A DNA stretch of 64,000 nucleotides from a virus, in the IMG/VR virus record IMGVR_UViG_3300015371_000004, positions 32,001 to 96,000 of that record. One strand, 5' to 3'. Positions 18,239-24,605 of this stretch are shown piece by piece; position 1 is the first letter of the stretch; each line of letters opens with the position of its first letter. A program made the position numbers and the translations under genes. The notes beneath the pieces were generated by a model. It did no database searches. It was given only the letters and a program-made list of their open reading frames with translations, and had not been told where the DNA came from.

Positions 18239-19117
18239 CTAGCGCAGACGCCGCTCGCCGTACGGGTCCTTGCGCATGAACGCGGGATTGGCGTGCACGT
18301 AGAGCATGCCCAGCTCTTCAGGGTTGTCGCGCTCCCACAGGAGGCCATTGGCCAGCGAGCCCGCCACCGCGTCGGCCACGTCCTTCCGGCCGGGCTGGCC
18401 ATTTCGGAAGCGCTTCGGATGGTCGTACTTGAGGCCCCGGACCACCTCCAGCTCGCGCATCTGCTCGAAGAAGGGCTCGAACTCGTAGTAGTCGAGCTTC
18501 TCCTCGTTCAGGAGTCCGATGAGGGTGTCGTAGGGCAGGCGGTTCCGGTCGACCGAGATCAGCTCGACCTCATAGCCGTCCTTCTCCAGCTGCTGGCGCG
18601 CTTCTTCGGACTGCCAACCGTCGTAGCTCACGCGGACGATGTTGAAGTCGCGAACCTTATGGAGGTTGTAGACGAAGCGCTGGCGGAGCCCCGCGTAATC
18701 GATCTGCTTGCCGGGCGCGGGCGTGATCTCGACCATGAAATCGACGACCCAGCGGGTGGTCCCGGGCTCCCGGTGAGTCATGGCCACCCCGGTCCGGTCG
18801 TTGTTTTTCGACTGGTCCACGTGGACGAAGTAGCGGCGGCCGGGCACGCCCCGGAAGATCGGGGTGAAGGTTTCCTCGTAGGGGTCCCACGGGCTCTGCC
18901 GGGCCTTGTTGGCGAACCGTTCGAGGATGCCCGGGTCGCGCAGCGCCTTCATGGCGCCCTGCGTCTTGAGCAGGACCGACCCATAGTTCTGCCACGCCAA
19001 GACCTCGTTCTGGCGGAACTGCTCCGCTAGACTCTCGAAGGTGACCTTGGGGTTCAGCTCCCAGCTGGCGGCGATGACCGCGATCCGAGTGCCGTCATGG
19101 GTTCGGTAGACTTCCAA
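18239..19117 (-). CDS. Terminase large subunit, C-terminal nuclease part
   Basis: SWELNP, VHVDQSKNNDRTG, SYDGWQS, KYDHP...KDVADAVAG (RNase H-like); TTG start without an obvious SD. Confidence 0.85.
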   Translation of the reverse strand: MEVYRTHDGTRIAVIAASWELNPKVTFESLAEQFRQNEVLAWQNYGSVLLKTQGAMKALRDPGILERFANKARQSPWDPYEETFTPIFRGVPGRRYFVHVDQSKNNDRTGVAMTHREPGTTRWVVDFMVEITPAPGKQIDYAGLRQRFVYNLHKVRDFNIVRVSYDGWQSEEARQQLEKDGYEVELISVDRNRLPYDTLIGLLNEEKLDYYEFEPFFEQMRELEVVRGLKYDHPKRFRNGQPGRKDVADAVAGSLANGLLWERDNPEELGMLYVHANPAFMRKDPYGERRLR

Positions 19118-19119
19118 TC

Positions 19120-19143
19120 AGACCCTACAACTTTGTAGGGTCT
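19120..19143. promoter_or_regulatory. Perfect 10-bp inverted repeat at the start of the terminase nuclease ORF
   Basis: AGACCCTACA-ACTT-TGTAGGGTCT; the core CTACA-N4-TGTAG resembles the TTACA-N4-TGTAA palindrome. Confidence 0.55.
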
Positions 19144-19157
19144 ACAAACCGAAGGGG

Positions 19158-19382
19158 CTATCTGAACCGGCCCGGGAGGGCCAAGCAGCGCTTGCAGGTC
19201 GTTCCGGCGCCCGCTCGCAGCTGCAGGTATGAGCGTTCGGTCCGGCGGCCGACGCAGCGCGGGACGATCTTCCCTTCGACGAACACGCCGTCATGCCGCA
19301 CGTAGTCCGATCGAAGGACGGGCGCCTTCGCGCACCGAGGGCCTTGGGCCTTGTTGAAGCGCTTCTCAGGGTTTGTCGACAA
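19158..19382 (-). CDS. Small Cys-containing hypothetical protein
   Basis: 74 aa, CKRC; overlaps the upstream gene. Confidence 0.45.
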   Translation of the reverse strand: MSTNPEKRFNKAQGPRCAKAPVLRSDYVRHDGVFVEGKIVPRCVGRRTERSYLQLRAGAGTTCKRCLALPGRFR

Positions 19383-22115: not shown

Positions 22116-23180
22116 TCAGGGGTTCCAGCGGAACACGGCCGGATTTTTTCGGAACTCCGCTCGACGGCGCTGCTCTTTCCGCACCTTCGATGGCACCGCA
22201 GCCCACCGCTTGGCCTGCTCAGGCGTATCGAACTTCTTCAGCACACCATCCGCGTCTCTGACCTCCCACGGCCGTCTGGGCACGGGTGCCCACTGCAGCA
22301 TCAGGCCGCCATTGTCTAGGCTGGGCAATCCGTCAAACCGACCAAAGCGCTCACGCGGCAGGTCCGTCCGCTCCGGCTCCTCACGTGGCTGCTTCCGTCG
22401 GCGCCTGAAGTTCTCGCGCGGCAGGTCAGTACGCGCTCCGGGGTCTGGGTTCATCAACGCCCGGGACAAGCGAGCCTTCGGCTGGTCAGGCTTCACGATC
22501 TCCGCCCTCGCATAGTCGCTATCGTTGATCGACGCGAACCTGACGATGAACCCGGGCCGGTCGTACTTGCTGGCCTTCCGAATCGCGACGTCGTGGCCCG
22601 TCTGATTGGCACGTGCACGCGCCGCGGATGCCGCGTCATGGTAGCTGTCGAAATGTTCCCTCCCGGGCTGGTCGCCCCCACCCGTCGAGCAGAACTGCCC
22701 ACCATCCGGCGACCCACCCGGCTTGTGGCAATCGTTGGCCTCGGCTACCTTCGCGGCGCCCGGGGCGACGACGGACATGAACGGATCCTTCTTCACGACG
22801 TCGATCGCCTGCTGCCGGACCTGCGTGAGCGCCGCCAGCCGCACCGACTCCTCGTTCCGGCCATGCATGACCCGGAGCGCCTGCAGCCGGTCCAGCTCCC
22901 GGCGCTGGGTGGCCACGAGGTCGTCCACGTTCATGCGGCCACTCTTGACCAGATCGACGATGTCCCGGACGGCCGAATCAATGGGGCCCGGCTCGCGCCG
23001 TTCGAGGAGGGCCGTCCTCTTCTGGGCCTCCCGGTCCATGGCACAGCGAGCCATCGCCAAGGCGGCCGAGCCCGAGGGCCGCTTCTCCCGGCAGGGGCGG
23101 TCATCGGCCTGCTTCTGCAGCCACGAGTTCGAGGCGGCCGTGTTCGAGCCTTTGAGTGCTGCGACGTGGATGCGGCTCAT
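22116..23180 (-). CDS. Motif-tagged protein with internal motif
   Basis: VAEANDCHKPGGSPDGGQFCSTG at 22748-22686; ATG 23180 lies 7 nt after GGGGTAATAC. Confidence 0.7.
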   Translation of the reverse strand: MSRIHVAALKGSNTAASNSWLQKQADDRPCREKRPSGSAALAMARCAMDREAQKRTALLERREPGPIDSAVRDIVDLVKSGRMNVDDLVATQRRELDRLQALRVMHGRNEESVRLAALTQVRQQAIDVVKKDPFMSVVAPGAAKVAEANDCHKPGGSPDGGQFCSTGGGDQPGREHFDSYHDAASAARARANQTGHDVAIRKASKYDRPGFIVRFASINDSDYARAEIVKPDQPKARLSRALMNPDPGARTDLPRENFRRRRKQPREEPERTDLPRERFGRFDGLPSLDNGGLMLQWAPVPRRPWEVRDADGVLKKFDTPEQAKRWAAVPSKVRKEQRRRAEFRKNPAVFRWNP

Positions 23181-23196
23181 GTTTGGTGTATTACCC

Positions 23197-23712
23197 CTAG
23201 TCCGAGGGCCACGGGGCACGCTCAAGTTCGTATTCTTCCCGGTCTCGCTCCAGACGCGACCGATGGATCCCCCGCCGATAGCTGGCTTTCGTCTTCCCGC
23301 TCCAGCGCCGATTCCGGTGTTCCGCGCGCGCCTGTTGGCGGTACTTGTCGAGCAGGTCCTTGCTCATCGGCTTCTCAGGCGTGCCGCGAGCCATCGCGTC
23401 CAGCGCTTCTGGAGACATCCCTTTGAGGGCCCTAATTCCATGCCGCTGAAGCGCGGCCAGCTGGGCCTTCAGGTCCGCGTAGATTTCCTGCTGATTTTGC
23501 TGCTTGCGCGCGGCCTGCCGCGCCATCTTCTCAGCCCTCCGCTGCTGATGGGCAGCGCCGCGCTGCTGGCGCGCCGCGCGCGCCCGGTCCACCGCGCTCA
23601 TCCCGGTCGACGCGCAGAACTGCCCGCCGCCCGGCCCGGACGGATTATGGCAGGGGTTGGCTTCGCTGAACGGACGTCCCTCGCTGGCGGGCCATAGTTC
23701 CCACATACTCAT
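23197..23712 (-). CDS. Motif-tagged basic helical protein
   Basis: FSEANPCHNPSGPGGGQFCASTG near the N-terminus; R/Q/A-rich body. Confidence 0.7.
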   Translation of the reverse strand: MSMWELWPASEGRPFSEANPCHNPSGPGGGQFCASTGMSAVDRARAARQQRGAAHQQRRAEKMARQAARKQQNQQEIYADLKAQLAALQRHGIRALKGMSPEALDAMARGTPEKPMSKDLLDKYRQQARAEHRNRRWSGKTKASYRRGIHRSRLERDREEYELERAPWPSD

Positions 23713-23726
23713 CCCTCTCGACAAGC

Positions 23727-24605
23727 TCAGTACGTCTCCCCCGGAGGTGGGGGGTCGAGCGGCCGATGCCGAATTCGCACCCCACGCCGCTTCACGTCGT
23801 CCACCCGCTGGCAGACGAAGTCAGTCGTGTCCCGGATGGTCGAGGTCACGAGGAGCTTGTAGGCCCCCGGAAACCGCGTCGTCAGGGACTTCATCAAGCC
23901 CGTGTGGATCCCCGGCGCCAAGTCCGTCTCGCCCGCCAGCATGAAGGCGGCCTCGTCCATGACCCCCATCATCGTGTGATACCCAAAGACGGCCGTCGAG
24001 ATACTCGACACCGAGAGCCCATAGATCCGCTTGGGGAAGCGGGCCTTGCGCGCCCCCGCCTTGAATCCCCGGCCGACAAACCATGGCGAGTGCTCGACGC
24101 GCGCCTTGAACTCGGTGAAGACGACGTCCGAGGCCTGATCCTTCGAGGACGAAGCGTTCAAGACCGCAATGCGCGAATTCGGGCCCAGCATGTAGAAGAG
24201 GTCCGCCCGCCTGAGGCAGACGAGCTTGTAGATCGTCCGGGCCATGGCGCAGCCCGCGATGAAGCCCTTGCCAGAGCCCGAGCCCGCCAAGATGTCGACC
24301 TCCCGGACCTGCGGCAGGTCGAAGTAGATCATCAGGTCGACCTTGTCCTGATTGACCAGCCCTTTGAGGTTCAGGTACTTGGCGCCGAGCATGAACTCCT
24401 CGACGTCGACCGGGATCTCGTCGTAGATGAGTTCGTAGACGGCTTCGAGGCCGGAGAGGTCCCCGGCCTGCGCGCGCTTGAGCAGCCGGTAGATCGCGGT
24501 GCGATCCGAGGGCGTCAGCCGCCGGATCTCGTCGAAGGCGTCGAAGCGCTCCTCTTCAGTCGCGTCCGGCGGGAGAGTCGGGGTCGGATTGAGGGATCTT
24601 GGCAT
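23727..24605 (-). CDS. Terminase large subunit, N-terminal ATPase part
   Basis: IPVDVEEF, Walker A AGSGSGKG, Walker B GVMDEAAF, motif III LVTST; stops before the nuclease domain. Confidence 0.85.
   Translation of the reverse strand: MPRSLNPTPTLPPDATEEERFDAFDEIRRLTPSDRTAIYRLLKRAQAGDLSGLEAVYELIYDEIPVDVEEFMLGAKYLNLKGLVNQDKVDLMIYFDLPQVREVDILAGSGSGKGFIAGCAMARTIYKLVCLRRADLFYMLGPNSRIAVLNASSSKDQASDVVFTEFKARVEHSPWFVGRGFKAGARKARFPKRIYGLSVSSISTAVFGYHTMMGVMDEAAFMLAGETDLAPGIHTGLMKSLTTRFPGAYKLLVTSTIRDTTDFVCQRVDDVKRRGVRIRHRPLDPPPPGETY

Follow-up and report, generated by a model that had tools for sequence, protein, structure and literature searches.

We analysed a 64,000-nucleotide stretch of viral DNA (hereafter, the window), which corresponds to bases 32001-96000 of the IMG/VR record IMGVR_UViG_3300015371_000004 (G000), a linear sequence of 115,949 bp with 65% G+C and a CheckV completeness of 76%. 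The record represents an uncultured GC-rich phage with a full genome of roughly 150 kb. Within the window, the large terminase subunit (TerL) is not encoded as one polypeptide. It is divided over two open reading frames (ORFs), each with its own start and stop, and the same holds in relatives. Both ORFs lie on the minus strand, and the 4.6 kb that separate them contain about ten genes. Their G+C contents at third codon positions (GC3; 0.89 and 0.90, respectively) are as in real genes. The split was first noticed in an annotation made from the letters of the window alone (the first-pass annotation). We refer to the two products as TerL-N and TerL-C, and consider it likely that they act as two separately translated chains of one enzyme.

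23727..24605, minus strand: TerL-N (P0001), 292 residues, the ATPase core, recognised by its motifs, tblastn, an AlphaFold (AF2) model and a fold match
18239..19117, minus strand: TerL-C (P0002), 292 residues, the remainder of the ATPase domain followed by hinge and RNase-H nuclease, recognised by its motifs, tblastn and a fold match

Identity and fold of the two halves

TerL-N carries a Walker A motif in a GSGSGKG region (G108-S-G-S-G-K113), a Walker B motif (D217-E218) and motif III (T254-S-T256). These residues are invariant or nearly so in 27 homologues, as in a P-loop ATPase of the ASCE class. The protein ends 36 residues past motif III, in line with the first-pass annotation, which had the ATPase half stopping shortly after that motif. 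In TerL-C, three acidic residues (D101, D166 and D249) are invariant among 24 homologues, as in an RNase-H nuclease.

Neither half matched any Pfam family at E<=0.01, terminase models included; PF27249 was found in some homologues. PHROG profiles gave weak TerL matches for the nuclease half only (best E 2.2e-05) and no TerL match for the ATPase half. When cultured phages were searched with tblastn, 317 records matched the ATPase half and 343 the nuclease half, all below 60% identity. The best matches, at approximately 30% identity, were to Streptomyces phages of the BE cluster (Stanwilliamsviridae), whose terminase is a single protein of about 607 residues with a sigma-like gene upstream, as here. 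TerL-N aligns to residues 10-273 of the TerL of one of these phages, Coruscant, and TerL-C to residues 365-543. We assigned both proteins to TerL because of the tblastn matches to annotated phage terminases, the weak PHROG matches of the nuclease half and the fold matches described below. Judged by sequence, the family is divergent.

AlphaFold (AF2) models were made from homologue alignments and compared with known structures by VIA-align. The TerL-N model had a mean predicted local distance difference test score (pLDDT) of 87.8. Its residues 61-277 superposed on residues 108-306 of T4 gp17 (Z 17.0, root-mean-square deviation 2.9, 187 aligned) and residues 64-289 on residues 1-223 of HK97 TerL (Z 17.0), and the P74-26 ATPase matched the same fold (Z ~17). 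The TerL-C model had a mean pLDDT of 80.3, with scores of only 40-65 for residues 1-60 and high scores for residues 61-270. A profile search of PDB sequences with TerL-C gave no match, so a fold search was required. Residues 51-265 superposed on gp17 358-562 (Z 15.2) and residues 54-258 on HK97 TerL 273-483 (Z 15.7), and the G20c nuclease was matched with Z 16.2. Thus, the folds and catalytic motifs of the ATPase and RNase-H domains are those of T4 gp17 and the TerLs of HK97, P74-26/G20c and D6E, whereas in those phages both domains belong to one chain.

The superpositions also located the cut. Residues ~307-357 of gp17 and 224-272 of HK97 TerL were covered by neither model, and they therefore correspond to the first ~50 residues of TerL-C. 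We take this stretch to be the C-terminal subdomain of the ATPase domain (the 'lid', or N-subdomain II) together with the hinge. Residues 1-50 of TerL-C are nearly invariant across the family, yet they are of low pLDDT when modelled alone. We then aligned 11 fused TerLs from related contigs across the junction, adding both halves as fragments. In the fused enzymes, the ATPase runs without a break into a conserved strand, (I/V)Y...TWE..P...F..NP..A.R.YG, and in the split ones TerL-C starts with this strand. The loop at the cut varies in length and is expanded by 35-50 residues in BE-cluster TerLs. Fused homologues span the junction, and no conserved segment is missing from the two halves. The first-pass annotation had divided the enzyme into an ATPase half and a nuclease half. 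The two halves stand, but the cut is not at the domain boundary: it lies about 50 residues upstream of it, inside the ATPase domain, in a variable, insertion-tolerant surface loop after motif III.

A cut at this point could be undone after translation by a split intein or another form of ligation, and inteins are common in this TerL family. Inserts of intein size (165-425 residues) occur at Walker A in six stand-alone TerL-N homologues (P0048, P0049, P0076, P0121, P0124 and P0127). Among TerL-C homologues, P0198 and P0197 also carry inserts, one with Hint and LAGLIDADG domains and the other with an HNH insert. These inserts sit in stand-alone halves, and therefore mobile elements invade genes that are already split. 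In the halves of the window, the tail of TerL-N extends only ~15 residues past the last homologous residue and is not conserved, and TerL-C starts at the homologous strand, which leaves no room for a split intein. Furthermore, Pfam models detected no Hint or Intein_splicing domain in either half, and position +1 lacks a conserved Cys, Ser or Thr. We give joining at the protein level hardly any credence.

Conservation of the split across relatives

No cultured phage matched positions 18000-25000 in a megablast search, and a scan of GTDB genomes returned matches at <=32% identity only and no prophage relatives, so that no host was assigned. Searches with single proteins gave almost nothing, and related loci were recovered with a profile. 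A protein search at similar length yielded 45 clusters of TerL-C homologues, all but the two weakest of which are 244-308 residues long and 42-76% identical to it; the closest, P0003-P0006, reach 58-76% identity. The clusters share a common first position in their alignment, with the consensus MEIWRSxDGSEIAVxAATWELNP. Longer homologues with more than 35% identity consist of TerL-C with an HNH or intein insert or a C-terminal extension and are not fused enzymes; fused forms were seen only at <=35% identity to TerL-C. An extension of ~200 residues at the C-terminus of TerL-C characterises the subclade of the low-G+C relative L048 and occurs likewise in L021 and P0199-P0201. In L048 (3771-5348), TerL-C is present in two frames of 85 and 388 residues, which suggests a frameshift or sequencing error.

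An exhaustive HMMER search with TerL-N returned 1170 relatives. Among the best 150 of their representatives, 58 are stand-alone proteins with a common end point, 85 are fused and the remaining 7 end in different tails. A tree of 130 ATPase domains contains one large clade made up mostly of stand-alone forms, together with a dozen fused ones. Both halves were located at 57 related IMG/VR loci, plus 2 annotated phage loci; 51 are single open frames and the rest are split. In one fused relative (L034:3-4106), the ATPase and nuclease matches share one open frame but are separated by ~2 kb of in-frame inserted sequence, which is probably an intein.

The two halves are collinear in every split relative, and the distance between them varies as follows:

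L018 (a relative with 44% G+C): 2.2 kb
L021 (38-39% G+C, as in L048): 2.3 kb
L048 (38-39% G+C): 2.8 kb
the window: 4.6 kb
G005: 11.2 kb
G001 (genome of 129,940 bp, 100% complete): 12.5 kb
G002 and G003: 16.0 kb each

The surroundings of the halves are conserved as well. Two neighbouring genes frame the locus in the window:

16165..18402, minus strand: portal protein, directly 3' of TerL-C (phrog_10963, E 4.6e-24), with synteny kept in relatives
24953..25684, minus strand: protein with a Sigma70 region 4 and a second helix-turn-helix (HTH) domain, upstream of TerL-N, with its position kept in relatives and in Streptomyces BE-cluster phages

TerL-C lies directly upstream of the portal gene wherever a portal was identified (L018, G001, G002 and other GC-rich loci); in the window, the true start of the portal gene is probably downstream of 18402. 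The head-morphogenesis module continues after the portal gene with genes for a MuF-like protein, a head-maturation protease (PHROG match) and the major capsid protein. In this module, a group-1 glycosyltransferase gene (14155-15315) separates the MuF-like gene from that of the maturation protease, and its position is kept in relatives at 35-45% identity. Upstream of TerL-N, a 157-residue protein (24556-25029) likewise keeps its position in relatives and in BE-cluster phages. Either this protein or the sigma-r4/HTH protein could be the small terminase, the latter instead of a sigma factor.

The comparison of G001 with G005, whose flanks are ~97% identical, was informative about selection. The two TerL-N genes are separated by 6 synonymous changes and 0 nonsynonymous ones, and the two TerL-C genes by 20 and 1, respectively. 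As far as these substitutions tell, both halves are under strong purifying selection, with a ratio of nonsynonymous to synonymous polymorphism (pN/pS) of ~0-0.01.

These data bear on the proposal that the halves are a decaying, non-functional terminase or an artefact of assembly, and that another enzyme packages the genome. The 76% completeness of G000 and the lack of a Pfam terminase match for either half speak for it. The layout recurs in independent assemblies from different samples, which excludes misassembly, and the low pN/pS of both halves and their invariant catalytic residues argue against decay. Furthermore, a single TerL-N match was obtained in G000, where Terminase_6N, Terminase_6C and TerL_ATPase gave none, and likewise in the complete genome G001, where Terminase_6N, TerL_ATPase and Terminase_3 gave none. 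The first-pass annotation had itself named misassembly, or a complete TerL elsewhere that would make the fragments non-functional, as what could overturn its reading. Neither was borne out, as no complete TerL was found in G000 or in G001, and we regard decay or artefact as highly improbable.

The interval between the halves and the start of TerL-C

The 4.6-kb interval of the window contains the following features:

23197..23724, minus strand: tagged protein 1, with FSE-ANPCHNPSGPGGGQF near its N-terminus (tag at 23611-23670) and no Pfam or PHROG family
22116..23225, minus strand: ORF with tagged protein 2, VAE-ANDCHKPGGSPDGGQF (tag at 22686-22748)
20996..22111, minus strand: tagged protein 3, a Zeta-toxin-like P-loop kinase with MHLVPLSE-FNPCHDPRDGKF at its N-terminus (tag at 22028-22111)
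20829..20996, minus strand: small ORF of 55 residues after tagged protein 3, GC3 0.84
20136..20832, plus strand: cassette encoding a DUF2958 protein (20136-20495), a DUF7336-like protein of 44 residues (20492-20626) and a Cys-rich protein of 69 residues (20623-20832)
19857-19885 (minus strand), 19906-19933 (plus strand) and 20089-20117 (plus strand): promoter-like repeats of extracytoplasmic function (ECF) type, GGAAC-N16/17-CGTCTAA
19366..19839, minus strand: CxxC-rich protein, with an ATG at 19839 downstream of the leftward ECF-type promoter-like repeat
19121..19147, minus strand: cluster of TTGTA/TACAA half-sites, three in the 27 nucleotides before the TerL-C start

Three ORFs of the interval share a motif, E-xN(P/D)CHxP..GGQF (the hyphen after E marks the same point as in the list), located 8-16 residues from a plausible Met start. 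In the ORF 22116..23225, the tag would be N-terminal if translation started at an internal Met (MSVVAPGAAKVAE), and the ORF may therefore represent two genes. The kinase matches PF06414 (E 1.2e-21; 77.6 bits against a cut-off of 22.3), which predicts its membership of the Zeta toxin family. Its translation contains the P-loop GMTASGKTT, it matches phrog_16619, and it has a homologue in the interval of G001. The three tagged proteins, one of them Zeta-like, had been described in the first-pass annotation, as had a divergent cassette with plus-strand genes, for which its label of early-type timing is putative; the latter proved to comprise three plus-strand genes and three ECF-type promoter-like repeats. 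One repeat faces left toward the CxxC-rich protein, and two face right toward the DUF2958, DUF7336-like and Cys-rich genes. A scan of the interval for sigma-70 promoters and terminators found nothing above shuffled controls. The ECF-type element is present in nine copies in the genome (including 37548-37576, 45317-45345 and 47265-47293, all on the minus strand, and G000 14500-15122), each followed by a Shine-Dalgarno (SD) sequence and a start codon. Two islands of the element are alike in layout, with one leftward and two rightward copies.

A wider form of the tag, E-xN(P/D)(C/Y)H..G(G)(Q/K/R)F, has ten copies in G000, three of them in the interval and others including those at 6526-8175 and 43037-43273 of the window. 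In the GC-rich relatives, the interval holds from 3 to 9 or more tagged genes. G001 has at least 7 tagged ORFs in its 12.5-kb interval and G002 at least 9 in 16 kb, all on the terminase strand and mostly with the tag near residue 12-20; the tag is recorded in the intervals of L088 and L089 and usually stands 8-20 residues from the N-terminus. By contrast, the interval genes of the low-G+C relatives L021 and L048 are untagged, and the interval of L018 (1189-3382) encodes 4 or 5 small proteins with another N-terminal motif (..PEPDNI.EAWSDAARAAAAAAR..). Among cultured phages, a tblastn search with the tagged 175-residue protein gave no match. Between G001 and G005, a tagged gene of ~1.1 kb is present in the former and absent from the latter, and identity is 92-94% inside the interval and 97-98% outside. 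As read from these sequences, the TerL junction is a hotspot of gene turnover, which in the GC-rich subclade is largely an array of tagged proteins. The tag is a candidate protease-cleaved signal for loading into the capsid, a role that fits the maturation protease, MuF-like protein and capsid genes encoded just downstream.

The start of TerL-C is unusual. Its N-terminal sequence is LEVYRTHDGTRIAVIAASWELNP, and the TTG start codon immediately follows an in-frame TGA. There is no canonical SD sequence; the sole candidate is an AGGG in the 12-bp stem of a hairpin next to the start. This agrees with the first-pass annotation, in which the nuclease half began just before SWELNP with an SD-less TTG. 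The half-site cluster includes a perfect 12-bp palindrome, TAGACCCTACAA-AG-TTGTAGGGTCTA, whose fold is an 11-bp hairpin lying directly against the start codon. Nowhere else in the 64-kb window does such a cluster occur. TTGTAG was considered as a genome-wide promoter or terminator motif and rejected, as the cluster stands only upstream of TerL-C. Similar clusters are found 5' of TerL-C in relatives, with 3-4 sites in L005 and G001 and 2 in L007, L014 and L018, where 0.05-0.15 would be expected per 80 nucleotides; relatives' clusters were positioned at L005:6036-6105 and L088:16912-16981. The codon at the conserved start position is TTG in the window, GTG in L005 and L015, ATC in G001 and G005 and ATG elsewhere. 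Upstream of the ATC codon, the in-frame extension has a GC3 of 0.68 (non-coding-like), against 0.90 in the gene body. No clear SD sequence was seen at the TerL-C start in the window or in the relatives examined. The cluster could be an operator, a pac-like site or an element of translational control.

The first-pass annotation had also raised RNA-level joining, in which the 4.6-kb interval would be lost from the transcript as a giant group I or II intron, or the halves would be joined by trans-splicing, to give one chain. Phage terL genes split by introns do exist, with splicing shown by RNA reads (PMC12880540). The weak start codon of TerL-C without a clear SD sequence, and the conserved repeat cluster and hairpin exactly at its 5' edge, could be read in the same way. 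However, a cmscan of positions 17500-25500 against Rfam 15 gave 0 matches at E<=1, a result that covers described families only. Moreover, the interval carries genes on both strands with promoter-like elements of their own, ranges from 2 to 16 kb with varying content, and has no conserved boundary sequence at the TerL-N end. Across dozens of lineages, the two halves keep separate stops and starts whose positions are conserved, and the first residue of TerL-C is an ATG-encoded Met in most relatives. Joining at the RNA level thus gained no support and appears very unlikely.

A programmed rearrangement of the DNA could have a similar outcome, with the interval cut out of replicating or packaged DNA and the halves fused at a late stage of infection, as in the skin/sigK element. 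The only repeats that might be cited for it are those of the palindromic cluster at the TerL-C edge, and nothing direct points to it. No att-like direct repeats flank the interval, and Pfam and PHROG annotation revealed no recombinase gene within it. In addition, all assemblies have the split form, and the two frames have their own conserved stop and start. We see next to no chance of such an excision.

A probable two-chain terminase

Given that no intron, intein, flanking repeat or recombinase was found and that the interval carries genes on both strands, a two-chain enzyme is the best explanation, and the large terminase of this phage probably consists of two separately translated chains. 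One of the two readings offered in the first-pass annotation was that the terminase truly has two chains and that its junction turned into a hotspot for insertions. This reading gained support from a clade-wide split point, a spacing of 2-16 kb and an interval that differs between 97%-identical strains, as well as from purifying selection on both halves and a complete relative without another TerL. The synteny check it had suggested agreed too, since the split, the collinear order and the adjacency of TerL-C and portal are all kept in relatives.

We propose that an ancestral one-chain gene was cut in the variable surface loop after motif III. TerL-N (292 residues) would supply the ASCE ATPase core, and TerL-C (292 residues) would complete that domain with its last strand and lid and would contribute the hinge and the RNase-H nuclease. 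Residues 1-50 of TerL-C most likely dock on TerL-N and thereby rebuild the full ATPase domain. A non-covalent pair of TerL-N and TerL-C would then substitute for a single TerL protomer in the packaging ring at the portal. After the split, the interval may have become a slot for gene gain and loss in a late-morphogenesis region. In the GC-rich relatives, the slot would have filled mostly with tagged genes, whose products are probably processed by the prohead protease and packaged as capsid cargo, and in this genome it may additionally have taken up the self-promoted divergent accessory cassette.

Several points weigh against a two-chain enzyme. The main loose end is the expression of TerL-C, which is unexplained given its weak, non-canonical start, the lack of a clear SD sequence and the hairpin. 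G000 is only 76% complete. The mixture of stand-alone and fused forms in the ATPase tree means either that the split arose in more than one event or that some stand-alone entries are gene-calling fragments. Finally, the ATPase and nuclease domains of the T4 enzyme, made separately and mixed, reportedly did not restore packaging (Kanamaru et al. in 2004).

The nearest analogue in layout is found in herpesviruses, where parts of a terminase likewise lie kilobases apart around virion genes. The gene for pUL15 has two exons, the intron between them holds UL16 and UL17, and the host spliceosome produces one mRNA and one chain. That arrangement depends on splicing, whereas the halves described here have separate starts and stops, and we know of no spliceosome-type machinery in bacteria.

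Among phages, terL is interrupted by group I introns in the Jug phages, with RNA evidence, and in Staphylococcus phage Twort, or by inteins in cyanophage Mic1 (PMC12880540, PMC13729910, PMC7156551). As here, these genes appear as several coding sequence (CDS) fragments. There, the fragments are rejoined by the intron or intein and the inserts encode homing endonucleases, whereas the present interval showed no sign of an intron or intein and is made up of ordinary genes, partly on the opposite strand, that span 2-16 kb. Parabacteroides phage phiPDS1 has a large terminase in two adjacent CDSs, which was left unexplained or considered a possible artefact (PMC10773633), and the ter gene of Streptomyces phage phiHau3 has a UUA/bypass interruption, with pieces 7-10 nucleotides apart and recoding (PMC10732093). 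Both resemble the present case in having more than one CDS, but their pieces are adjacent or 7-10 nucleotides apart, in contrast to kilobases and intervening genes here. BE-cluster TerLs such as that of Coruscant (607 residues) are the closest in sequence, and both groups have the sigma-r4/HTH gene upstream. They are fused, with a loop expansion of 35-50 residues at the site of the cut, whereas here there are two genes 4.6 kb apart. A literature search found no paper describing terminase halves separated by a multi-gene block of ordinary genes.

A more far-reaching proposal is that the interval is a dedicated, clade-conserved slot for tagged proteins, such as the Zeta-like kinase, that are processed by the protease, loaded into the capsid and injected, and that the split is kept for an advantage. 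The advantage, out of reach for a one-chain enzyme, could be independent control of dose or timing for the ATPase core and for the lid-nuclease part, with the conserved TTGTA cluster and the weak start controlling TerL-C, or escape from Avs-type immune sensors of the host that detect whole TerL. We regard this proposal as doubtful.

TerL is a hallmark of tailed phages and herpesviruses and a universal marker. To our knowledge, models of it have always had a single chain, with a covalent hinge through which the ATPase and nuclease domains communicate. A large clade in which the ATPase domain itself is cut, and in which lid and nuclease are provided in trans, would amount to a natural fragment-complementation test of how the motor is built and how ATPase and nuclease are coupled. 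The split also accounts for the failure of marker-based pipelines and Pfam models to find TerL whole, or at all, in these phages. Furthermore, the interval in the GC-rich members of the clade collects tagged proteins that are probably delivered by the capsid, and it would be a good place to seek injected effectors.

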